Shown: positions 6,540 through 33,054, counted from the stretch's first letter. The stretch: 64,000 nucleotides of DNA from an uncultured Verrucomicrobiae bacterium (GCA_963769025.1 CAVYKI010000009.1:1216001-1280000); one strand, 5' to 3'. Numbers and translations: made by a program. The notes: generated by a model not told the origin, from the letters alone.

Positions 6540-7140
6540 TAAGCAATCATTCCTGAGAGACACGAGACTCCGGGTCGTGGCCAGACAATCGTTCCCGGCG
6601 GACACCTCGCTCCGGTGGGTGCGCAGACAATCGTTTTCAAGGATCACCTCGCTCCGGCGTGCTGAAACACAATCGTTTTCCGGGGACATCAGGCTCTGGT
6701 TCCGCGAAAGACAATCATTCCTGAGAGGCACCCCGCTCCGGTCTCTCAGGAACGATTCGTTTTGGCGTCCGACCCTCTCATTCCTGCCCAAACGCAATCG
6801 TTCCTGAGAGTCCCCAGCTTTCCGGGTGAGAAAACACAATCATTGCTGAGAGTCCCGAGCCTCCCGTCTGCCAATTCGGATTGTCGCGCAAGGCTCCGGA
6901 GCCTCCTGTCTGCCAATTCGGATTGTCGCGCGGGGTTCCGGAGCCTCCCGTCTGCCAATTTGGATTGTCGCGCGGGGCTCCGGAGCCTCCCGGCAACGAA
7001 TTTGGATTGTCGCGCGGGGCTCCGGAGCCTCCCGGCAACGAATTTGGATTGTCTGGCCGCGTTCCGGAGCGGGTTGTCCCTCCAAAACGATCATCTGCTG
7101 ATTGTCCCGAGCCTCCCGGCAGTCAGGACGGATTGGTTTT
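6540..7140. repeat. Degenerate 42-bp phased tandem array whose core motif inverts midway
   Basis: CAATC at 6544, 6586, 6628, 6670, 6712, 6795, 6837; then GATTG at 6879, 6921, 6963, 7005, 7047, 7131. Right-hand unit approx. CCGGAGCCTCCCGTCTGCCAATTCGGATTGTCGCGCGGGGCT. Confidence 0.85.
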
Positions 7141-7316
7141 TCACGCGCCCGAACTTCGAAACAAGGGCCGAGGCCATACCGCGGACCGGCGCCTTCCTCC
7201 GCCGCGAGCGGCACCGCGCCGGCTGCGGGTCGGCCCGGACCGGACCAGCCTCGGGGCAACGATTGCTCGGAAATAGGTTGCCGCAAAGCCGCGCACCACT
7301 TCCCTTTCCCGCCCAC

Positions 7317-10300
7317 GTGAAACCCGGCGCTCCGAATCTGCTCGATGCCATCGGCCGTGAGCCTTCGCTTGCGGCGAAGCTGCGCGCAGTGACGGAGGGC
7401 GGCGACGGGATTGTCTTCGAGCAGGTGACGGAGGGAGCGCATTCGGCATTGTGCGCGGCCATCGCGCGGGCCGCGCAGCCGACGGGAAGCCGGGTGTGGC
7501 TCGTGTGCCCGGCCCTGCGGGCGCAGGAGCAGCTGCACAACGAGCTGCTGCAATGGACGCCCGACGCGCTCTTTTTCCCGGAGCTGGAAGTGGCCCCCGT
7601 GGAGGGCGCGATTCCGGACCCCGAGACGGTGGCCGAGCGGCTCGCCATCATCCACCGGCTCAATGCGCGCGACGACGGGAAGAAGCCGCTCGTGATCGTG
7701 CTCACGAGGGCGGCGCTGGAAGAGGCGGTGCCGGACTCGGAGGAGATGCAGGCGCTGGAAATGCGGCTTTCGCGCGGCGAAACGGTGATGCGCGAAATGC
7801 TCCTCGGACGGCTGAGCGCGGCGGGCTACGAGCAGGCGGCGCAGGTCTCGCAGCGCGGGCAGTTCGCGGTGCGCGGCGGCATTGTCGATGTTTTCAGCTT
7901 TCACCACACGCTGCCGACGCGGCTGGAGTTCTTCGGCGACGAACTGGAGAGCATCCGGCAGTTCGACCTCGATGCGCAGACAAGCGTGGAGCAGCTCCCG
8001 TCCTGCACGATCCTCCTCGGCCAGGCGGTGCCTCGCGCGCGACGGCTGCGCGACTGCATCCGGGAGCGGGACATCACCGTGGATGTCGGCGCGGACTGGC
8101 TGGAGGCGAAGGTGACGATCAGTGCTGGATCGGTCGGCGGAGAATTCACCACGGAGGACACGGAGAACACGGAGGGAGTCACAGGAGATTCTGACTACGA
8201 CTCTTTGCATACCTCCGTGCCCTCTGTGGTTGAATCACAAGCATTCGACTACTCGCTTGCCTTCTTTGACAACGGGCTCGGGGAATTTGAGGCGGGCGAT
8301 TTCGTCGTCGATGAGGCGCGGCGCGAGCGGTTCTTCGCGCAGCTCACGGAATGGCGCACGCAAGGGTGGAGCACCTTCGTCTTTTGCAACAACGAGGGCG
8401 AAATCGAGCGGCTGCGCGATCTGATCCCCGCGGTGGAGGCGGACGCGCTGCAATTTTCGGAGGGCACGCTCGGGCGCGGGTTCACCTTCCCGGCCGGACG
8501 CGTCGCGGTGCTCAGCGACTCGGAGCTCTTCGGCCGCTACCGCAACACCCGCGCGCGGCGGATCGCACTGAAGCGCTCGCGGGAGATCGTCAGCCGTTCG
8601 CAGATTGATTTCAGCGAACTGATTGAGGGCGAACTCGTCGTGCATCTCGAACACGGCATCGCGCGCTTCGAGGCGCTGAAGCAGCTCGCGAACGGCGAGG
8701 ACGTGCTCGCGCTGGAATTTGCCGAGGACGCCAGGCTCTACGTGCCGCTCGACCAGAGCTACCTCATCGCGCGCTACGTGGGCATCGGGAAAAAGCATCC
8801 GCCGCTCAGCAAGCTCGGCGATGCGGCGTGGACGAACGCGAAGAAGAAGGCGGAGAAGGCGGCGTTCGACTACGCGGGCAAACTGCTCGAAACGCACGCG
8901 GCGCGCGAGACGCAGAAGGGCTTCACCTTTCCGCCCGACAGCAAGTGGGTGCGCGAATTCGAGGCGTCGTTTCTTTACAAGGAAACGCCGGACCAGCTCA
9001 CCGCCATCGCCGACACGAAGGCCGACATGGAGACGGAACAGCCGATGGACCGGCTCATCTGCGGCGACGTGGGCTTTGGAAAAACGGAGGTGGCGATCCG
9101 CGCGGCGTTCAAGGCGGTGTGCGCGGGCAAGCAGGTCGCCATCCTCGTGCCGACGACCGTGCTCGCGGAGCAGCACTGGCGGAATTTTCGCGAGCGCATG
9201 AGCGACTACCCGGTGACGGTGGACATGCTCAGCCGCTTCCGCACGCGCGGGCAGCAGGTGAAGACGCTCGCGGGAGTGAAGGACGGCACCGTGGACATCG
9301 TCATCGGCACGCACCGGCTCATCTCGAAGGATGTGGAGTTCAAGGATCTCGGGCTCGTGGTGATCGACGAGGAGCAGCGCTTCGGCGTGCTGCACAAGGA
9401 GCGCTTCAAGCAGATGTGGCCGCTGGTGGATTTGCTCACGCTCTCGGCGACGCCGATCCCGCGCACGCTCTACCTCTCGCTCATGGGCGCGAAGGACATG
9501 AGCACCATCGAGACCGCGCCGCTGAACCGCATCCCGGTCGAGACGCTCATCTGCCCGTACGACGAGCGCATCATCCGCGACGCGATCCAGCGTGAGCTGA
9601 AGCGGCAGGGCCAGGTGTTCTTTCTCCACAACCGCGTCGGCGACATCCAGAGCGTGGAGGCAAAAATCCGCATGCTCGTCCCCGGCGCGCGCACACTCGT
9701 CGGCCACGGGCAGATGGCGGAGCATGAGCTGGAGGAAGTGATGCACCAGTTTGTGAAAGGCGACGCGGATGTGCTCATCTCCACGACGATCATCGAGAGC
9801 GGCGTGGATATCCCGAACGCGAACACGATCATCATCGACCGCGCCGACCGTTTCGGGCTCGCCGATCTCTACCAGCTCCGCGGACGCGTCGGGCGTGCGC
9901 AGCACAAGGCGTACGCCTACCTGATGCTGCCGCGCGACATGCTCGGCACGGGCGAGGCGAGGAAGCGCATCAATGCGATCAAGCAATACGGCTCGCTGGG
10001 CGCAGGTTTCAAAATCGCGATGCGGGATCTGGAAATTCGCGGCGCGGGCAACATCCTCGGCACCGCGCAGAGCGGGCACATTGTGACCATCGGCTTCGAG
10101 CTTTACTGCGCGATGCTGCGCCAGGCGATCGCGAAGCTGAAAGGCGAACGCAGGAAATCGCGAATCGAGGTCGCGCTGCATCTGGACTTTGTCGTGCTGC
10201 GCGAGCCCGGCTTCCTCGAAAAGGAGCGCAAGGCCGGCTGGGCGCCCGCATTTCTGCCGACCGGCTACATCGAGGAGACGCACGCGCGCATCGCCGCGTA

Positions 10301-21126: not shown

Positions 21127-21135
21127 GGAAACGCC

Positions 21136-22574
21136 ATGAACCCGCTCGAACGCTTCCGCACCGTGTTTCCCGCGGAGCGGATGCTCACCGGGCCCGCGCA
21201 ACTCGGCGCGTATGAGTCCGACGGGCTCACCGCCTTTCACGCGCGCCCGCTCGGCATCGTCGTGCCGGAGACGCAGGAGGAAGTGATCGCCGCGGTCCGC
21301 CTCTGCCGCGAACTCGCGCTGCCCTTCGTCGCACGCGGCAGCGGCACGAGCCTCTCGGGCGGATCGCTGCCGGTGGAAAATGGAATCGTCATCGCGCTGA
21401 ACCGGCTCAACCGCATCCTTCGCCTCGATCCGCGCGAACGCATCGCCGTCGTCGAGCCGGGCGTCATCAACACGCAGGTGACCGCCGCCGCGGAAGAGCA
21501 CGGGCTCCACTACGCGCCCGACCCGTCGTCGCAGACCATCTGCACCATCGGCGGAAATGTCGCCTTCAACTCCGGCGGCGCGCACTGCCTGAAGTACGGC
21601 ATGACGTCGAACCACGTCCTCGGCATCAAGGCCGTGCTCGCGACCGGCGAAGTCGTGGAATTTGGCGGAGCGAGCCGCGAGCAGGTCGGCGCGGACTTCA
21701 CCGGACTGTTCACCGGCAACGAAGGCCTCTTCGGCATCGCGCTTGAAATCACCTGCAACTGCTGCCGCGCGCCGAGTGCTTTCACACCGTCCTCGCCGGC
21801 TACCGCACGCTCGAGGAAGCCGGCAACGCCGTGAGCGCCGTGGTCGCCAGCGGGCTGCTGCCGGGCGCAATCGAGATCATGGATACGCTCGCGATCCAAG
21901 CCGCCGAGGCCGCTGTCCATGCCAACTACCCGCGCGATTGCGAAGCGATGCTCATCGTCGAACTTGAAGGCCCGCGCGAGAAAGTCGCGGTCGAGCGCGC
22001 TCATCTCGATGCACTCCTCGCCGCATCGCAGCCGGTCGAGACACGCGTCGCACGCAATGGCTCAGAGCGCGGCGCGATCTGGAAAGGCCGCAAGTGCGCG
22101 TTCAGCGCCGTCGGACGCCTGTCGCCGGACTTCATCGTGCAGGACGGCGTCGTCCCACGCCAGCGGCTCGGCGAAGCGCTCCGGCGCATCGGCGAAATGA
22201 GCACCGCCGCCGGCCTGCGCGTCGCGAATGTCTTCCATGCCGGCGATGGCAATCTGCACCCGCTCATCCTCTACAATGGCCGCGAAGCCGGGGCGCTCGC
22301 CCGCGCGGAGGAACTCGCCGGCCGCATCCTGCGCATGTGCGTGGAAATGGGCGGCAGCCTCACCGGCGAGCACGGCATCGGCATGGAAAAGCGCGATTAC
22401 CTTGGCGACATGTTCAGCGCCGCGGAGATCGATCTTATGCAGCGCCTGCGCGCCGCATTCGACCCGCTCGGAATTTCCAATCCCGGAAAAATGTTCCCCG
22501 GCGGCAATGCGCCCGCGCTCGTGCAACACGGCCTCCACCCGCTCGAAGCCTCCGGCCTGCTCAGCCGGGAGTGA
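21136..22574 (+). CDS. glcD: Glycolate oxidase GlcD-like FAD-linked oxidase; frameshift near 21760
   Basis: [67 protein letters not shown]. Confidence 0.88.
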
Positions 22575-24053: not shown

Positions 24054-24996
24054 ATGAAAATCACCTACGCCTCGCTGCTGGCTGCCGTCGTGCCGACGTT
24101 TGTGGTCCTCGCGTGCGGCTTTGCGTTGCGGCGGTTTCGCGGCCTCCGCTCGGAGGCCGACGCGAGCCTGCTTACCGTCGCGGTCAATTTCCTCTATCCG
24201 TGCTTCATCGCGGACACCATCCTGCGCAGCCCCGCATTGCGCGACGTGCGAACGGTGGCGAGCGCACCGGCGATCGGCTTTGTCCTGCTGCTGCTGTGTT
24301 TTGCGCTCGCGGCTCTCGCCGCGAAATTGCTCCCGCTGAAATGGCCGCAGCCCGCGCGGACCTTTGCGTTCAGCGCGGCGATTCCGAATTGGGGCTATCT
24401 CCCGGTGCCCCTCGTGCAGCAGCTCTTCGGCACGGACACGATGGGCGTCCTCTTCGTCCACAACATCGGCCTCGAACTCGCGCTGTGGTCCGCCGGCGTC
24501 TGGCTGCTCTCGGGGAGCGGTTCGTGGCGGCGGGTCCTCACGGTTCCGTTCTTCGCGATCCTCGGGGCGCTCGCGCTGAATCTCGTCCACGCCGGAGACT
24601 GGCTGCCCGGCGTGGTGCTCGAGTCGCTGCACCTGCTCGGCCAGGCGGCGATTCCCCTCTCGCTCCTGCTCACCGGCGCGGTGCTGGCGGACTCCGTCGT
24701 CTCGCTCCGCGACGACCGCCGCCCGTTGATCACGGTGGCCGGCTGTGTCGTCCGACTCGCGCTGCTCCCGCCGCTGTTCCTCGCCGCCGCGCACTGGCTC
24801 CCGGTGTCGCTGGACCTCAAGCGCGTGCTCGCCGTGCAGGCCGCGATGCCGTGCGCGATGGTCCCCATCCTCCTCTCGCGTCATTACCGCGGAGACATCG
24901 GGATCGCCGTCCAGATCGTCCTCGCGAGCACCGCGCTGGGATTGCTCACGATCCCGCTTCTGGCTGCGCATCGGCTTCGCGTGGCTCGGGCTTTAA
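24054..24996 (+). CDS. AEC family (auxin efflux carrier) transporter; frameshift at the C-terminus
   Basis: PNWGYLPVPL, GQAAIPLSLLLTG, QAAMP, ST.LGLLTIP. The true end LRIGFAWLGL* is in the frame of ORF 24745-24996. Confidence 0.88.
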
Positions 24997-25076
24997 AGGG
25001 GTACCGTCGGACTTTCCACCCACGCCGCGGGTTCGACAGCCGCCCGGCCTTCTGCCACAACTCCCCGGCAAAGCCC

Positions 25077-25568
25077 ATGCCCTCCTCACCAAACAACGCC
25101 GCCGTCTTTGCCCTCGATGCCGACTTCCTCTGGGACGACTTGGAGGACGCCATGGCCGGATGCGTGAACTGGCAGAGCGCGAAGCGCGGCAAGATCATCC
25201 CCCTCCTCTTCTTCGCGCCGATGACCGCCCCGGCAAACCCCGACGCGTGGGAACCCCTCCAGGGCCCGCCGCAGCACCTCCTCATCATCTCCATCGAGCA
25301 CAGCTCCGATGCCACCCTCCGCCGCGCCATCCGCCACGCGTCCGGTGTCCTCGGCGAACTCCATGAGCCGGCCAACTGTCCCCACGTGGACATCGCCTTC
25401 GACGGGCATCCCATCGCCGAAGCCTATGCGCAGATGGAGGCTGCCGACATCACCGCCTACCGCTACAGCAGTCTCGTGAAGGACGACGTCTCCTTCTTCT
25501 TCATCCGGGGGCCCGAAGCCGTGCAGGCCTTCGGCCAAGGTCTCCGCCGCGCGACTGCGGGGAAGTAA
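25077..25568 (+). CDS. Hypothetical protein
   Basis: ATG at 25077; 163-aa globular-looking ORF (MPSSPNNAAVFALDADFLWDD...) with coding-like codon bias. Confidence 0.6.
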   Translation: MPSSPNNAAVFALDADFLWDDLEDAMAGCVNWQSAKRGKIIPLLFFAPMTAPANPDAWEPLQGPPQHLLIISIEHSSDATLRRAIRHASGVLGELHEPANCPHVDIAFDGHPIAEAYAQMEAADITAYRYSSLVKDDVSFFFIRGPEAVQAFGQGLRRATAGK

Positions 25569-25755: not shown

Positions 25756-26122
25756 TCAGGCCTCAAACGGATTGATGAGTCGCAGCCCGCTGACGTGTTT
25801 GAAGTCGTCCACGTTCCGCGTCACCAGTTCCAAGCCATGCACCAGGGCCGTAGCGGCGATGATGGCGTCCGCTAGTGCCCATCCTGCTTTCCTGCCGCAA
25901 CGCGATGGCCCGATCGATGACCGCCGTATCCAGCGGATGCACCGTCAGGCGGCGAAACAAAATGTCGAGCGCGGCTTTCTCCTCCGGTTTCAGCCCCGTG
26001 AACCCATACACCTCGATCGGTGTGACGCTGGCCACCCCATTGTCCCCGGAGACCACCAGCGCCTCGATTTCCGGCACGGTCTGGTTCGCTGCGTAAATCA
26101 GAATGTTGCTGTCCAGGAGCAT
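25756..26122 (-). CDS. vapC: VapC-family PIN-domain toxin; frameshift near 25875
   Basis: LLDSNILIY...IEVYG, then in the shifted frame ADAIIAATALVHGLELVTRNVDDF...LINPF. Confidence 0.88.
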
Positions 26123-26125
26123 CGC

Positions 26126-26386
26126 TCAATCCCGGCCCGGCATCGGACGGTCTTTGCGGATTTCCCGCTGCCAGGCCACGGGGTCGGTGATCTCCTTGAA
26201 CGTGCCCATCTCCCGCAACCGCTTGAGCGCGGCCAGCGCCGCCTCCCGCGTCGGTCGTTCGCTTTCCTCGGACGCAGCTTCGATGGTGGCCGTCACTTTC
26301 AACTTGGAATTGCGCAACTCTGCCGGCAGCGGCAGATGCACCGTGCCATCGGCGTCGGCTTCCAAAATCGCGGTGATCGTGCTCAC
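26126..26386 (-). CDS. Putative antitoxin of the VapC toxin
   Basis: 86-aa ORF 3 nt upstream of vapC; GTVHLPLP N-terminus and DPVAWQREIR..R C-terminus typical of small PIN-associated antitoxins. Confidence 0.75.
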   Translation of the reverse strand: MSTITAILEADADGTVHLPLPAELRNSKLKVTATIEAASEESERPTREAALAALKRLREMGTFKEITDPVAWQREIRKDRPMPGRD

Positions 26387-26497: not shown

Positions 26498-29400
26498 TTA
26501 CCCTTTGAGAACCTTCTCCCGCCACCGCCGCACGCTGCTCAGGTCCAGCCGTTCGCCTTTGAACTCGATCTGCTTCACCGGCTTCGTCCCGTTCGCGCTT
26601 TCGCGTTGGAGCACGCTCGATGATTTCCATCCAGCGCACGTCGGCGAATTCCAGCTTCGTCACTGCCGATCGCGCGCTCGTCGTCCTCCGAGAAGGTGCC
26701 GATCACCAGCATCACCGGATGCGGCTGCTGGATCCACGTCTTCACCCAGCGCTGCTTCTTGATCGTGAAAACCTCCGCGCCGTCGGTCTTGCGCTTCGTG
26801 AGGTGGGAATTGCCGGACTTGAGTTGCAGGTAGAGGCCGGCGTGCCGATGCCGTTCGCCGTCGTCATTGGTGAACTCGAGCTCAGCATATCCAGCCCGTC
26901 GTCCTCCGTCCGCCGGAATCTCGAAGCACTTCTGATCGGCGCTGGTGATGCGCGCGCCGACCTCCAGCGCCAGCAGCTTCCCGCGTCGGCGGGTACTCCA
27001 GCTTCGCGAGATCATCGGCCTGCAGTTGCTCGACCTGCGCGCGCACCGCGTCGCTGGCAAACTTCTTCTCCAGCGCATCCCACAGCGGGAAGCGCTCGCC
27101 GCAGTCGTCGCATTCCGTGTCGGCGTTCTGCTTTTCGCGCAGCAGCTTCTTCATCAGCACCTCGGGATTGCCTTTCGGCGCGTGACACTTCGGGCAGACG
27201 TAGTGCCGGAGCCGTTGCGCCTGTTCGCAGGAGGTCTGGAGGTGCGCGTGGATGTAGTTGGCAAAGATCACCTGCTCCTGCTGCGTCACGCCCTTGCCGA
27301 AATAGACGCTGATGTCCCCGTCGCTGCCGCTCTCGCGCGTGAGCTTGAGGCCCATGTGATGATCGCCCGCGAGCGTCACGAAGTCCGCGGCGTCGCGCCA
27401 GAGTTCCTTGAGTTGTGAAGGACTCGCTGTCCGCCAGCTTCACCACCAGCGTCGCGTAGATGTCGTCGAGAAAGCCCTTCACCGCGTAGCTCACGAAGAC
27501 CGACGGATGCTCCAGCACCGCCGGGCGGTCGCGTCCGCAATGGCTCGGGAAGACGAGCTTGTCGCCCTGGCGCAGGCAGAGGCCGCGCTGCTCCAGTTGC
27601 CGCTCCATCTCGCCCAGCACCACGCGCTCCTCGGCGGGCGGCAGGCGCTTCATCTCCACGGGAGCGCCGTCGCGCCCGATGCTCTGGTAGATCAGCTTCC
27701 CTTCCGCGATGCTGCGCAGCGGCAGCACGCCGAGATCGTTCTCCGCGCTGCGCAGGGTGCGAATCACGGCTTGCGCGTAGGCATTGATCCACTCCGGCGC
27801 GAGCAGGATGTAGGTGCCGTAGTCGAGTTCCTTCACCACGCCGGGACCGTCCAGCAGGCCGATCACCGTCTGCAAGGTCTCGTCCGTGAAGCGCGGTTCG
27901 TCCGGCAGGCGCCGCCAGAGCAGTTCGCGCAGTTCCTTGAAGGTGTGCAGCACCTGCCCTTCGTCCCGCAGCTTCAGGATCTCGTCCTTGATCAGTTTGA
28001 AAATGCGCGGCGACGTGCGCTTCTCCATCTGCGCCCAGGATGCCGGCGATCATGGCCGCGCGCAGTTCGTCGCAGCCGGTGCCGTCCTTCGCGCTCGTCT
28101 CATGGTAGGCGAGCCCCTGTTCCTTCGCAAAGGCTTGCAGCTTTCCCCGGCTCGCCTTGAAGCCGGTATCGATCCGCCCGGCCACGAGGAAGTGCGAAAT
28201 CTTCTCCTTCACGCTGCGCCGCAGAGCCGTCTGCCAGTCGCGCAGACCGGGCAGGACATCCTCTTGGTCCGCATTGAACAGTAGCAGGATGAGTGCGGTG
28301 CGATCCATGTAGAGCTGGTGAATGAGGCGTTGATCCGCCTGCCCGCCGAAATCCCATAGCCAGATGTCCCGTTCTACACCTTGCTCCACACTGGCGGCCT
28401 TGAGTTGCCACTGCGTGGACCACGCGCCAACCGTGGAGTCTTCACTCGGCTTCCATTCGCCGGTGGCGAGACGGTGCGTCAACCCGGTCTTGCCCGAGTG
28501 AGTATCGCCGACCAGGAGGACTTTGGCGTTGGTATATTCAATTTGGTCGCGCCAGAGAGGTAGGTCGTACGCGCGAGATGCGGACGCTCGTGCTTCAGCA
28601 GTTAATTCTTCCAAATCCCACACCCTAATTCCTCCGCGCTTGTCGCCGGAGAACGCGTAGCGTTGTTCTGCGCTCCACGCCACGATGCGGATTTCGTGTT
28701 TGTGACCTCTGAGCACTAGCAAACAGCGGCCAGTCTCGATATCCCAAAGGCGCACGGTGTTATCTGACGAACCAGACAATGCACGGCTCGCATCGCTGTT
28801 CAAAGCCAAGCTCGTAACTCGATTCGCATGGCCTTCGAGCACACGTAAACATCGCGCCGAGTCCGCCTCCCAAACACGAATAGTTCTATCGTGTGAACCG
28901 GACAATATGAGACGTTGATCGGCACTCCACGCTATACTCCGAACCTGACCAGTATGGCCTCCAAACACGCGAAGACACTCTCCGGTCTCAATGTCCCATT
29001 GGCGCACACTGTGGTCGTCAGAGCATGACAAGCCGCGGCGCTGGTCAGCACTCCACATTACACGCCAAACTAGAGAATAGTGTCCTTCAAACACGCGAAG
29101 ACATTGGCCTGTCTCAATATCCCATAGCCGCATCGTGCCATCGTCCGAGCCCGAAAGTGCGCGAGCGTTGTCCGCGCTCCACTCGGCGTGCCGAACCGCG
29201 TTTGTGTGACCCTGAAAGACTCGATTACGTCTCCGTGAATTAAAATCCCACATTCGCATGGTCTTGTCCGAAGAGCATGTGAGAATACGCCGCTGGTCAT
29301 TGCTCAGGGCGACACTGTTCACACGACTAGCATGGCCTCTGAAAGTAAGGAGGCACAATCCCGTCTTCGCATCCCAAAGCCGCGCTATGTTCTCAGTCCC

Positions 29401-29925
29401 ACCTGTTAGCGCGTGGTTACCGCTTGGGCTGAACACAAACGCTAAAAGCCTCCCCTTCGATCGAAGCTGGACGGCATTTGCCTCAACCTCCTCCTCCTCT
29501 TCCGTCGGCATCGTAGGAGGCGGCCGGCACGCTTCGAGGAGCTTCACATATTCCTGCTCGCGCTCTGCCGGGCGCCAGTTGATGTAAAGGAATTGCGCCA
29601 GGGAGCCTTTGATGGGGGCGTCGTCGAGGCGCAGGGGAAGGAAGCGGCGCTCCTTGTTCAGCGGGTCGCGAAAGCGGAACGTGCCGGACTCCAACTGCGC
29701 CCAGTCCGAGCCGAACGCATTCGCCGACATGCAGAGCACGAGCACGCGGGAGCGCTCCAGCCCTTCCTCGATCTTCGCCGGAATGCTGTCGCCGGGCCGG
29801 ATCTCCCATTCATCGAACCACACCCGCAGCCCGTCCTTCCTCAGCCGCTCCGCCACGTCGCGCACGACCGGCTTGTCCTTCGCGCTGTGGCTCAGGAAGA
29901 CGTCGTAGGGGAAATCCTCAGGCAT
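26498..29925 (-). CDS. TIR - 7xWD40 - Roc GTPase - COR-like - Zn ribbon - DUF4365-like nuclease protein (Roco-like); several frameshifts
   Basis: TIR: YDVFLSHS..DK...W.D...I.PGD...SDWAQLE. Seven ~42-aa GH...WD repeats. Roc: GDTHSGKT, STVG, WDFGGQ, ETSAK. COR-like: ILLAPEWI...YAQAVIR. CPKC...CDDC. C-terminal DDGLD..LEF...LYLQLKSG. Pieced together from ORFs 27376-29925, 27012-28028, 26882-27379 and 26575-27078. Confidence 0.85.
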
Positions 29926-30469: not shown

Positions 30470-30560
30470 GGCACAGCCATTTCAGATAGCGTGCCAAGTG
30501 GCATCCGTAGGTCTCGGTATGGTGGGAAGAAGGGCCGGGTGCCAGCATCCGCGCCATGAA
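30470..30560 (-). pseudogene. Possible remnant of an integrase N-terminal SAM-like domain
   Basis: SSHHTETYGCHLARYLKWLC resembles the S.RTE..Y..W.RR.I.F helix pattern of integron/phage integrase N-termini; no catalytic domain follows. Confidence 0.3.
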
Positions 30561-30838
30561 ACGGAGTAAGCCGCACACTTCTCTCGCCGCCACTGGCGGC
30601 AATGCGTGTTCCCTCCACAGCACGGCGGCCGTGTTCAGGCGCGGCGGATGGCGCGGGCCGGGACATGTGGTGGTGGGCGGTGACACCTTCCGTGGCATGG
30701 GGACGTCAGTCATGGCTGTCTATTTTCAGGGGAAGGAGTGGCAAATGACTGCCACGGGCGTCGCTGCGGGGGCAGGACGCCTGCTTGGTTCGGAAACTGC
30801 ATTCCGTCCGATGCGCGGGGGCCTTTCCGAACCCGCAG

Positions 30839-31250
30839 CAACAGTTGCCGGAGCATGGGGGAGACTCCTCCGGCCTTGGACAACACTTGCCGGAGCATGG
30901 GGGAGACTCCCCCGGCCTTGGACAACACTTGCCGGAGCTTGGGGGAGACTCCCCCGGCCTTGGACAACACTTGCCGGAGCATGGGGGAGACTCCCCCGGC
31001 CTTGGGCAACACTTGCCGGAGCATGGGGGCGACTCCTCCGGCCTTGGACAACACTTGCCGGAGCATGGGGGAAACTCTCCCGGCCTTGGACAACACTTGC
31101 CGGAGCATGGGGGAGACTCCCCCGGCCTTGGACAACACTTGCCGGAGCATGGGGGAGACTCCCCCGGCCTTGGGCAACACTTGGTGGCGCCTGGGGGAGA
31201 CTCCTTCACCTCCGGACAACAGTTGGCACAGCTTTGGGGAGGCTCCTTTG
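30839..31250. repeat. Tandem array of ~10 x 42-bp units, each with an internal hairpin
   Basis: Unit CAACACTTGCCGGAGCATGGGGGAGACTCCCCCGGCCTTGGA starting at 30839, 30881, 30923, 30965, 31007, 31049, 31091, 31133, with degenerate copies at 31175 and 31217; no spacers. Confidence 0.95.
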
Positions 31251-31413
31251 CCTCGGAAAACGCCTGTTTTCCGGCTTGGCCGCCCTGATTACCCCCGCGC
31301 CCGCGATGGCGGCGTGGGATGAAGGGGCCTGGGATGATGGATTCTGGGACACGCCGACGCCGCCCGCCTTTCCGCTGATTCCGCAGGCCAAAAAACCAAC
31401 CAACCGAAAAACC

Positions 31414-32334
31414 ATGGCTACAAACCCAACCCCCGATGACGATGACGTGCTCATCTCCCTGACCGAAGAACTCGCCGACGGCTGCCACCTGCACGAGGTG
31501 GCCCTCGGCATCAAGCAACAGACCGAGGCGGTCATGCGCGCCGGCCTGCTGGCGTCCAAGACCGCCCTCCTGGGCCTCGGCGCCGCGCGCGTGCTGGTGG
31601 ACCAGAAGAACGACCTCTTCCAGGCGGCGGACGCCGCGGGCGAGACCGTGCTGAAGAACTGCCGCCTGCGGCTGGTGAAACTCTTCGGCACGCAATACAA
31701 CTCCAACTGGCAGGCCGCGGGCTGGCCCGACCAGTCCACGAAAATCCCGCTCAGCCAGGACAAGCGCCTGACGCTGCTCGGCGCGCTGGATCTCTACTTC
31801 ACCGCCAATCCCTCCGCGGAGAGCGAGGACATGGACGCGACCGCCGCCATCTGCCACACCGCGCACGAGGCCATCAGCGATGCGCGGGGCGCGGTGAATG
31901 TGGCGGATTCCGGAGTGACGACGGCGAAGAACACGCTGACGAGCACGATGAAGACCCTGCGCAAGCGGGTGCGCGGCCTCATCGTGGAACTGGGCACGCT
32001 CATGGCCGACGATGACGCGCGCTGGGAGCAGTTCGGCCTGAACATCCCGGCCAACCCCTCGGCCCCCGAGGCGATCGAAGACCTCACGCTCACCGCACTC
32101 GGCGGCGCCAGGGTGCTCGCGCAATGGCCCTACGCCACGCGGATGACGGGCACGCGCATCATGCTGAAGCGCATCGGCACGGACGACGACCCGGTCTCCG
32201 CCGGCAGCGTCGGCGGCCTGGAAAAAGTGCTCGCCGCCCTGACGGTCGGCCAGACCATCGAGGTCTTTGTCATCGCCCACAACGACGGCGGCGACGCCGC
32301 ACCGAGCCCCACGAAGAGCGTGGTGGTGACGTGA
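31414..32334 (+). CDS. Helical-bundle protein with C-terminal fibronectin type III-like domain (possible in-frame upstream start at 31306)
   Basis: A/C-rich leader before ATG 31414; long amphipathic helices with W..AGW and W..FGL motifs; C-terminal P....L.L...G...V...W......L..G....V.V.AHNDGG...PS Fn3-like pattern. Confidence 0.75.
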   Translation: MATNPTPDDDDVLISLTEELADGCHLHEVALGIKQQTEAVMRAGLLASKTALLGLGAARVLVDQKNDLFQAADAAGETVLKNCRLRLVKLFGTQYNSNWQAAGWPDQSTKIPLSQDKRLTLLGALDLYFTANPSAESEDMDATAAICHTAHEAISDARGAVNVADSGVTTAKNTLTSTMKTLRKRVRGLIVELGTLMADDDARWEQFGLNIPANPSAPEAIEDLTLTALGGARVLAQWPYATRMTGTRIMLKRIGTDDDPVSAGSVGGLEKVLAALTVGQTIEVFVIAHNDGGDAAPSPTKSVVVT

Positions 32335-32339
32335 TAGCC

Positions 32340-32450
32340 GAAGGATGAAGGATGAAGGATGAAGGCGGAAGGGTGAAGTCCCCCCGTTTTTCCGCGGTCG
32401 TTTCTGCCTTCCTTCATCCCTCGTCCTTCATCCTTCATCCTTCATCCTTT
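32340..32450. repeat. Inverted heptamer repeats (GGATGAA)n ... (TTCATCC)n hairpin
   Basis: GAAGGATGAAGGATGAAGGATGAAGG...CCTTCATCCTTCATCCTTCATCCTT. Confidence 0.85.
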
Positions 32451-32457
32451 GCCCCCC

Positions 32458-33054
32458 ATGCCCTTCGACCCCTCCAAGCCCGCCGACCGCTCGCCAAACT
32501 CGGCCGCCGAAATGCGCGCGCAACTCATCGGGCTGAAAGACCTCATGGACGCCATCCCCGGGATCACCTCCGCGGTGGTGGATTCGGTGACGACGCTCAA
32601 TCCCGGCGAATCGGCGACGGCGACGTTCACCCTCATCGGCACTGTGCTGCACATCAGCCTCGCGCTCCCGCGCGGCGCGGACGGCATCCCCGGCCTGCAA
32701 GGCGAGGTGGGGTCGCAGGGACCGCCGTTTGCCAATGCGGTCATCGACAGCGTCACGACGCTGAACCCCGGGGACAACGCGACGGTGTCGGTGACCTTCG
32801 ACGGGAACTCGGTGCATTTCAGCTTTGGCATTCCGCGCGGGGCGCAGGGGGAACCGGGGCCGCCGGGGCAGCCGGGCGAGGTGACAAATGCGGACATGGC
32901 CAATGCGATTTCCTCGGTCATCGCCGGCACCTCGAACAACACGAACTCGGTCCCCACGATGGACACGCCCTTCACCAACGACCCGCTCTCGCTGGCCGAT
33001 GGCGAGCTGCTGCGGGCGAACTACAACGCACTCGTCCTCGCGCTGCGCCGGTAG
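32458..33054 (+). CDS. Collagen-like / phage fibre-like protein
   Basis: Two copies of A(V)(V/I)DSVTTLNPG..AT.....G...H.S...PRG, each followed by short G-X-Y runs (GADGIPGLQGEVGSQGPP; GAQGEPGPPGQPGE); C-terminal helix LRANYNALVLALRR. Confidence 0.78.
   Translation: MPFDPSKPADRSPNSAAEMRAQLIGLKDLMDAIPGITSAVVDSVTTLNPGESATATFTLIGTVLHISLALPRGADGIPGLQGEVGSQGPPFANAVIDSVTTLNPGDNATVSVTFDGNSVHFSFGIPRGAQGEPGPPGQPGEVTNADMANAISSVIAGTSNNTNSVPTMDTPFTNDPLSLADGELLRANYNALVLALRR

Follow-up and report, generated by a model that had tools for sequence, protein, structure and literature searches.

A Roc-COR protein with TIR and nuclease ends in an uncultured Verrucomicrobiae bacterium, probably a member of a widespread family of NLR-like sensors

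Prokaryotic proteins that combine an AP-GTPase (Roc) with a COR domain have been predicted computationally to counter invaders (Kaur et al., 2021, eLife; PMC8195603). Where that work describes their layout, fast-evolving leucine-rich repeats (LRRs) stand at the N-terminus and at least 24 kinds of domain, TIR among them, at the C-terminus, while its Figure 6 source data 1 holds rows reading 'TIR+BetaPropeller+AP-GTPase', 1000-1236 residues long, some of which carry the NCBI name DUF4365 (28 string hits). The nuclease DREN has in turn been described, in the account of SPARDA on which we draw, as a collateral nuclease whose monomer has no activity and which becomes active when it forms tetramers in filaments (PMC12205087). 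Here we analyse a Roco-type gene in a stretch of 64,000 nucleotides from an uncultured Verrucomicrobiae bacterium (GCA_963769025.1 CAVYKI010000009.1:1216001-1280000), the whole of which is called the window below. The gene lies on the minus strand, from 29925 to 26498, and an earlier note, made from the DNA alone, had proposed it as a single-gene immune candidate with an effector at each end. The locus is probably one gene of a widespread and horizontally spreading family of Roc-COR sensors that resemble nucleotide-binding leucine-rich repeat receptors (NLRs), with frameshifts that are most likely errors of assembly.

Domain order, active sites and folds

The gene begins with an ATG at 29925, and its product is read, in order, as a TIR domain, seven WD40 repeats, a Roc GTPase, COR-A/COR-B, a four-Cys zinc ribbon and a DUF4365 (DREN) PD-(D/E)xK nuclease. 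As assembled, it is spread over four overlapping minus-strand open reading frames (ORFs) of 849, 338, 165 and 167 residues that jointly read as one protein. The TIR domain (29539..29901, residues 9-129) lies in the 849-residue ORF (27376-29925) and matches Pfam TIR_2 at E 1.3e-28; the Glu of its WxxxE motif, to which the earlier note had drawn attention, is read directly as residue 79 in SDWAQLE, with the Trp as W75. The variable block that follows (28591..29448, residues about 160-445) matches Pfam WD40 at E 2.4e-63 and contains seven W[DE] dipeptides, at residues 183, 225, 267, 309, 351, 393 and 435. These seven dipeptides and their exact 42-residue period indicate a single seven-bladed propeller, just as had been claimed. 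The Roc (Ras-like) GTPase occupies 28051..28524 (residues 468-625) and is recognised by both Pfam Roc (E 7.9e-19, residues 468-586) and Ras (E 2.2e-19); every motif quoted for it can be read directly (GDTHSGKT, WDFGGQ, VAGRID and ETSAK), including the degenerate G4 with GRID.

Downstream of Roc, 207 codons in one frame (27417..28037) encode COR-A and the first part of COR-B and are 77-99% identical to the long relatives. The end of COR-B, the zinc ribbon and a long helix follow at 26996..27415, with the claimed CPKC...CDDC ribbon present at 27101-27196. The nuclease extends over 26501..26994, where the last piece reaches 25.1 bits against Pfam DUF4365 (cut-off 24.3), and the stop codon of that piece is read directly at 26498..26500. 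All of these features are on the minus strand. As regards the DDGLD...QLKS segment proposed for the nuclease, both motifs are present, but only LQLKSG stands in the main frame of the last piece; DDGLD is legible in a neighbouring frame only and is thus out of the main frame as assembled.

The catalytic motifs of the three enzymatic modules are nearly invariant. W75 and E79 of the TIR domain are each kept in 60 of 61 relatives, and SDWAQLE of the window aligns with DWTNYE of AbTIR, whose aligned WxxxE Glu we take to be the catalytic one. Solved structures that match this domain best are 7uxr, PdTIR 3h16, AbTIR 7uwg/8g83 and TcpB (E 8e-15 to 4e-10), and by sequence the TIR appears closest to the bacterial NADase TIRs, including the NAD+ hydrolase AbTIR. 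The GxxxxGKT and DFGGQ motifs of Roc are each found in 74/74 relatives; in the ETSA motif the Glu and the second Ser are likewise kept in all 74, the Thr in 73 and the Ala in 70. Zinc-ribbon cysteines are kept in 67-69 of 69-70 relatives. Similarly, the nuclease residues are conserved (D1019 in 68/69, E1023 in 69/69, Q1039 in 66/69 and K1041 in 69/69 relatives), and Pfam DUF4365 matches the relatives at 1e-11 to 2e-21.

The window protein is not one continuous reference, and L006, the intact relative closest to it, was modelled in its place from alignments containing 70 and 67 natural relatives. The Roc-COR model, with a predicted local distance difference test (pLDDT) of 78 and a predicted template modelling score (pTM) of 0.79, has the RocCOR of M. 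barkeri Roco2 as its best Foldseek match (4wnr, E 3.2e-14, 350 columns). LRRK1 (8e05), C. tepidum Roco (6hlu/3dpu) and LRRK2 (8fo9) are further matches ranked above plain Rabs, and the Roc-COR fold matches extend over 350-437 columns. Residues 139-299 of the C-terminal model (pLDDT 86) match the DREN of SPARDA (9qcc, 9jt2 and 9vx6; E 1.5e-6 to 9.5e-6), and the model can also be aligned with the Hjc resolvase 1ob8_A (Z 10.5, root-mean-square deviation (rmsd) 2.7, 110 aligned). A nuclease fold is therefore present in the relative, in agreement with the proposed C-terminal nuclease. Residues 3-120 of the same model lie on the COR-B of C. tepidum Roco (3dpt_B; VIA-align Z 6.0, rmsd 4.6, 111 aligned).

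Since the models of L006 match Roco structures of both Roc-COR and COR-B, the segment earlier called COR-like is a true COR as judged by predicted fold, with the zinc ribbon at its end; the models set the ribbon into the end of COR-B and place DREN at the C-terminus. A point against this assignment is that the COR piece of the window matches 0 Pfam families at E <= 0.1, the Pfam COR models included. Among its best 60 matches to solved chains by sequence there is no Roco and none that covers the COR part, the best solved matches of the G domain by sequence (best 60) are Rabs, and the Atlas offers COR-A/COR-B clusters only as leads, at 0.79.

COR and zinc ribbon together are predicted to form a homodimer, with a score of 0.43 as against 0.02 for the best of three controls. 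Among proteins solved as pairs, 20 of 30 reached this mark, as did 1 of 23 solved as single chains; these counts serve as a rough calibration only, given that a custom alignment was used and that the score is the confidence of the model. Agreement between the runs amounts to at least 78% of contacts, with a partner pLDDT of at least 80, and the predicted interface consists of the zinc ribbon and a COR-B strand.

Frame breaks in the window copy

The indels flagged in the earlier note are real features of the assembled sequence. When the intact relative P0007 (1142 residues) is aligned by tblastn, its residues 1-639, 635-841, 842-981, 982-1091 and 1082-1140 fall in frames -2, -3, -1, -2 and -1; at least four uncompensated indels, confined to the 3' 1.5 kb, thus distribute the gene over three frames. 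The indels were mapped against contigs of four other metagenomes that hold near-identical copies of the conserved parts; these represent other communities and reveal where the window departs from its relatives, not whether the indels are real. Relative to the related contigs, two bases (CG) are missing at 28036..28038 (after 28037; frame -2 to -3), and one extra base is found at each of 27416 (frame -3 to -1), 26996 (frame -1 to -2) and, in the nuclease region, 26622 (frame -2 to -1). Locally compensated indels occur at 26911 and 26884 (net +3), which put the D-G-x-D motif out of frame, at 26853/26848/26836 (net +3) and at 26742/26737 (net 0). All are given for the minus strand. Between 28578 and 29545 no contig of the four metagenomes covers the window at a likeness of at least 90%, with both flanks covered, which means only that no copy at least 90% alike is present among those contigs.

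That the pieces join into one ORF, as had been supposed, is borne out by the relatives. Of the complete loci (all five parts, away from contig ends), 51/63 are one open frame, 3 carry a stop and 9 a frame change; intact relatives are about 1120-1150 residues long. About half of the interrupted ones come from long-read metagenome-assembled genomes (MAGs), and no conclusion is therefore drawn from the interruptions.

One explanation of the breaks is that the window copy is a genuine, recently inactivated pseudogene, whose product could be no more than a TIR-WD40-Roc fragment with a nonsense tail. Costly abortive-infection genes are frequently lost, and several observations would suit such a loss. 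At least four uncompensated indels fall within 1.5 kb, whereas long genes nearby are intact (for example Mfd, 1307 residues), and homopolymers are found at none of the 12 indel places. The nuclease D-G-x-D motif is out of frame. Furthermore, the 12/63 complete relatives with stops or frame changes include short-read assemblies (a stop in L046). In the search for source reads, the best run holds no more than 29% of the words. Two signatures of sequencing error were considered and set aside: the nanopore homopolymer signature is ruled out as the cause of the indels by the 0/12 count, and an excess of G>C differences was dropped, as C/G third-position changes are ordinary at 64% G+C.

Even so, real and recent decay is unlikely, and three lines of evidence favour errors of assembly. 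The first is that other genes of this genome (5.34 Mb, 13 contigs, 83% complete) are broken in the same manner and, for rpoB, dnaE and secA, at similar density. The Rpb2_6 domain of rpoB is found in four pieces with open frames of 273-548 residues within 1.6 kb (G000:C3:126485-128054), both dnaE-type genes are split and contain stops, and one of the two secA-type genes is split (dnaE- and secA-type stretches at G000:C6:395440-396266, G000:C9:635205-635922 and G000:C9:854271-855849). Within the window itself, a GlcD-type FAD oxidase gene at 21127-22574 (plus strand) is divided into FAD_binding_4 (21127-21834) and FAD-oxidase_C (21747-22574), in different frames with an 88-base overlap, probably by another assembly frameshift. 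The second line is that substitutions inside each frame-consistent piece (COR, the middle piece and the start of the nuclease) are strongly purified, with a ratio of nonsynonymous to synonymous differences (pN/pS) of 0.06-0.16 against the closest intact relatives, and of 0.12-0.13 for the COR piece against L006 and L005. The third is the placing of the breaks: every one falls where copies from other community members are at least 90% identical to the gene, and the unique WD40 block is free of them; cross-mapped reads could have spoiled the consensus in the shared part. Taken together, these observations make errors of a noisy metagenome assembly the most likely source of the breaks, ahead of gene decay; an artefact is clearly the more probable of the two, and the copy in the cell is probably intact. 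Many consensus indel errors would also be in keeping with a completeness of 83% in only 13 contigs. With so many frameshift errors in the assembly, broken genes of this genome should not be read as pseudogenes.

The family, its variable propeller and its neighbourhood

The family is large. With the COR piece as query, 982 long proteins are found at E <= 1e-3 among 2184 candidates, and many of these are about 1140 residues long and contain TIR_2, WD40, Roc and DUF4365 together. Among the representatives of 50% clusters, the number matched by the same piece is 898 at E <= 1e-3, 357 at 1e-10 and 90 at 1e-30. Contigs limited to a single genome for each species gave 493 candidate stretches, of which 217 encode a relative. 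The loci retained, 78 in all, belong to Verrucomicrobiota, Acidobacteriota, Planctomycetota, Gemmatimonadota, Proteobacteria, Cyanobacteria, Bacteroidota and others. Intact members are present in the cultured strains Acaryochloris marina MBIC11017 (L080), Bradyrhizobium sp. LTSP885 (L069), Magnetospirillum fulvum DSM 13234 (L075) and Candidatus Nitrotoga sp. M5 (L015). The conserved parts are also held by twenty runs from 13 studies of sediment, glacier, biocrust, soil and wetland. The Atlas cluster is labelled 'hypothetical protein', and NCBIfam names only the TIR and the small-GTPase domain.

The architecture is not fixed throughout. Some members have 13 WD40 repeats; P0149 has no propeller and an added C-terminal AAA_21/AAA_15 ATPase, and P0155 is a full-length member with the same C-terminal ATPase. 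In P0149, P0155 and P0232 this AAA_23/AAA_21/AAA_15 ATPase stands after DUF4365, and P0203 carries an N-terminal response-regulator receiver domain. The ATPase added in some members suggests that the core accepts other sensor or regulator modules.

The genome of the window has one family copy, together with short remnants of the 5' end of its own TIR 116-121 kb away (L002-L004; G000:C9:1124960-1126384), which comprise 93 bases at 96%, 56 at 95% and 53 at 87% identity. Next to the remnants are a small ORF, DUF433-like on visual inspection, and a long array of simple tandem repeats (L002, about 1795-2445). Elsewhere, two copies occur in one genome, L051 and L057 on the chromosome OY970330.1 and L014 and L039 in one MAG, which is consistent with a small sensor repertoire.

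Among the domains, the propeller is the most variable. Across 42 full-length sequences, WD40 has a mean pairwise identity of 0.54 and the other domains have values of 0.62-0.74. In four pairs with a close core (L012/L022, L029/L035, L029/L036 and L035/L036), WD40 has a pN of 0.22-0.32 and a pS of 0.52-0.74, and the other domains have a pN of 0.00-0.06 and a pS of 0.16-0.40; the rate rows of the pair L007/L011 (internal stop) and of the 'Roc' piece of the window (out of frame) were excluded. Since pN and pS are both raised in the propeller, a faster protein clock combined with an older or separate history is indicated. A WD40 array with a period of about 126 bp is found in 41/78 loci, and the propeller array of Acaryochloris marina comprises 13.4 units with 91% matches and no indels. 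In the WD40 region of the window, no DNA tandem repeat was found at a score of 30 or more.

The remainder of the gene is closely shared across lineages. The COR piece of the window is 94-95% identical in DNA to L006 and L005, with synonymous divergences (dS) of 0.21 and 0.17, and a 2-Mb Isosphaeraceae contig carries a copy with 90% identity to it (dS 0.39); the ratio of nonsynonymous to synonymous divergence (dN/dS) is 0.08-0.12 in these comparisons. By contrast, the PanC of the window has a best match of only 89% in protein in the whole collection, its own protein excluded, and the best named match, from a Chthoniobacteraceae MAG, is at 81%. Comparison of the sequences thus indicates that the Roc-COR-nuclease core travels between lineages and that the family is spreading horizontally. 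As such, the family could be regarded as a natural experiment in sensor diversification, where a near-frozen signalling and killing core crosses phyla, joined to a propeller that is altered through turnover of its repeats and through replacement.

No conserved partner gene was found in an all-against-all comparison of 4264 flank ORFs from 79 loci. The largest real flank cluster includes 9/79 loci and lies kilobases from the gene, and the top near-gene clusters were rejected as partners, being shadow frames or displaced pieces of the gene itself. The earlier note had held that a conserved housekeeping context would speak against defence; no conserved neighbourhood of any kind surrounds the relatives. 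In a scan of neighbours (120 of 423 ORFs, representing 12 of the 46 loci with both 5-kb flanks), 7 of the 12 sampled loci proved to have toxin-antitoxin, defence or mobile genes within 5 kb, counted with no control set. These genes are Fic, SIR2_2 and HerA at L007, AbiEii at L015, DUF6036 at L020, Uma2 and ParE at L022, PemK and IstB at L028, pP_pnuc_2 at L029 and an IS1595 transposase at L032. At L007 (stretch 6550-9617), from a Terrimicrobiaceae MAG, the homologue lies directly downstream of SIR2_2 and HerA (DUF87), a known defence pair, with Fic/DOC before them.

Several findings weigh against an immune sensor. The count of defence genes is uncontrolled, and the co-localisation it implies is suggestive only. 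PADLOC 2.0.0 has no model that matches the whole protein; its partial matches are to the TIR (PDC-S66 1.4e-21, ThsB and others) and, weakly, to the nuclease (Aga_REase 2.4e-4). Literature searches returned no experimental paper on a TIR-WD40-Roc-COR-nuclease architecture. Moreover, the G4 motif of Roc is GRxD and not NKxD, with the Arg and the Asp kept in 74/74 relatives, which bears on the nucleotide preference of the proposed switch.

Such findings leave room for a role outside phage defence, in which the protein would serve regulatory or kin-conflict Roco signalling, for example in programmed cell death or development of large-genome soil and sediment bacteria, with an adaptor role for the TIR and with DUF4365 either binding DNA or acting as a regulated nuclease. 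Hosts are indeed mostly Acidobacteriota, Verrucomicrobiota, Planctomycetota and Cyanobacteria with large genomes, 5/12 of the sampled loci have housekeeping neighbours only, and the receiver domain of P0203 would suit a regulator. Kaur et al., in the passages concerned, also tie such systems to a multicellular habit (PMC8195603; PMC7159879). Nevertheless, the TIR and DREN catalytic residues are nearly invariant, and the TIR is closest to NADase TIRs. Hypervariable repeat sensors, a patchy spread across phyla without a conserved partner, and variants with an added AAA_21 / OLD-type ATPase also speak against such a role, and we consider the regulatory role quite unlikely.

The lack of a partner bears equally on the output of the TIR domain. 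AbTIR, which is among the closest solved TIRs, makes a cADPR (cyclic ADP-ribose) isomer, and TIR signalling is described as common in Thoeris-type systems in the sources drawn on here. The TIR could on this basis be a producer of a cADPR-type isomer, with the signal or the GTPase state gating the nuclease as the single toxic output. Pfam and PADLOC found no SLOG, Macro, SAVED or STING domain in the protein to receive such a signal, and the flanks of the 79 loci offer no conserved gene that might do so, making a single gated output improbable. An NLR-like sensor with two effectors accordingly remains the preferred reading.

The neighbours of the gene in the window itself are ordinary chromosomal genes (Mfd, PanC, NadB, PurQ and a lactate permease) together with a small LuxR-type gene. 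Directly downstream, at 25763-26386 on the minus strand, are two small genes that by eye have the look of an antitoxin and a PIN (VapC-like) toxin, the PIN-like one with a garbled C-terminus; the VapBC reading is unconfirmed, with nothing from Pfam, NCBIfam, PHROGs or PADLOC. At 24054-25568 (plus strand), the ORF of a Mem_trans (AEC-type) transporter runs about 190 residues into unrelated sequence and may represent two genes that an indel has joined by abolishing a stop.

Upstream of the gene, a 42-bp tandem repeat of 8.7 copies with 94% matches is present at 30839-31204 (plus strand), within an ORF at 30556-32334. It encodes a 14-residue repeat (TLAGAWGRLPRPWT-like) in a product of 592 residues with no match in Pfam, NCBIfam or PHROGs. 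Beyond it, at 32340-32449, stand two heptamer arrays, GAAGGAT x5.6 (32340-32378) and TCCTTCA x5.7 (32410-32449), which are reverse complements of each other with about 30 bases between them and could form a long hairpin just before the ORF at 32449-33054. The PHROG matches of that ORF are weak and tail-fibre-like; the best, of unknown function, has E 5e-8, and those to tail proteins range from 5e-5 to 3e-3.

Proposed mechanism and comparison with known systems

A model of the dynamics can be built on the parts, order, conservation and folds described above. Roco proteins change their assembly state with nucleotide. TIR NADases, as far as the sources drawn on describe them, need assembly. With the tetramerisation of DREN added to these two properties, ligand-triggered oligomerisation is the simplest model. 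We infer that the variable propeller would bind an invader-derived ligand while COR-B and the zinc ribbon hold a resting dimer, as the homodimer prediction suggests. Capture of the ligand would change the nucleotide and assembly state of the Roc-COR core, and a higher-order assembly would then bring TIR domains and DREN domains together, so that both sites are completed at once. The outcome would be loss of NAD+ and unspecific cleavage of DNA, and hence abortive infection.

A more far-reaching reading takes bacterial Roc-COR proteins as true pattern-recognition receptors and thus as a second, GTPase-based NLR-like lineage. Here the zinc-ribbon-linked COR dimer would become a tetramer or filament upon binding of a ligand by the propeller and would fire the TIR NADase and DREN together. 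New specificities could arise by shuffling of units in the 126-bp WD40 arrays, and propeller cassettes could be swapped between phyla with the near-identical TIR and Roc flanks as homology arms. As a joint claim this is possible but tentative, and we would not expect all of it to hold. If true, the immune roles of eukaryotic ROCO proteins (LRRK2, DAPK and algal ROCOs) would descend from a bacterial system. Should members of the family prove protective against phages, Roco GTPases would take their place beside STAND NTPases, TIR, cGAS-STING and gasdermins among the immune modules common to bacteria and eukaryotes. Protective members would also provide a tractable bacterial model of an LRRK2-type switch, of about 1140 residues and with two easily assayed outputs.

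The closest described systems are the AP-GTPase-COR proteins of Kaur et al. With an AP-GTPase+COR core, a fast-evolving sensor and variable effectors in one protein, the family has the features that define their class. In both, as far as the published descriptions consulted extend, a Roc-type GTPase and COR form the switch, the sensor is a fast-evolving repeat, and the effectors vary and include TIR (PMC8195603). The difference lies in the layout: here the sensor is WD40 and effectors stand at both ends, whereas theirs has an N-terminal LRR sensor and C-terminal effectors. In the rows of their source table that we could compare, COR, the zinc ribbon and the DREN nuclease are outside the architecture string. 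The kind of protein has therefore already been predicted in print, and its double-effector WD40 form has been catalogued but not described. For the NLR-like, GTPase-switched architecture of the earlier note, the parts and folds hold, and the implied novelty is reduced by the predictions of 2021. The words GTPase, WD40 and Roc are absent from two recent screens, of TIR and of domain-centric defence.

Solved Roco proteins (4wnr; 6hlu/3dpu/3dpt; LRRK1 8e05; LRRK2 8fo9 and 6vno) share the Roc-COR-A-COR-B fold and the homodimer by the end of COR-B, which in our family is a prediction. Unlike them, the window family is without LRR or kinase, has GRxD at G4, places a zinc ribbon at the predicted interface and carries TIR and nuclease ends. 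With SPARDA (9qcc, 9jt2 and 9vx6) it shares the DREN nuclease family and fold, as far as these are described (PMC12205087), but it has no Argonaute, APAZ or guide; its nuclease is fused to a GTPase switch, and sequence identity is 16-19%.

Similarly, the Avs/bNACHT STAND sensors, in the account consulted (PMC13581612), couple an effector, an NTP switch and a repeat sensor, with hypervariable sensors and swapped effectors. Their switch is a STAND ATPase, whereas that of the window family is a Ras-like GTPase with COR, and no STAND family is present among the Pfam families listed (best 25 each) for the window protein and 18 relatives. The protein would work like an NLR and is not a member of the STAND class. 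In fungal HNWD/NWD NLRs, the WD40 repeats are under concerted evolution. These fungal receptors and 41/78 of the relatives have in common WD40 sensors built of near-identical 126-bp units, but the fungal proteins belong to another kingdom and use a NACHT NTPase, and the window copy is without a repeat at the DNA level.

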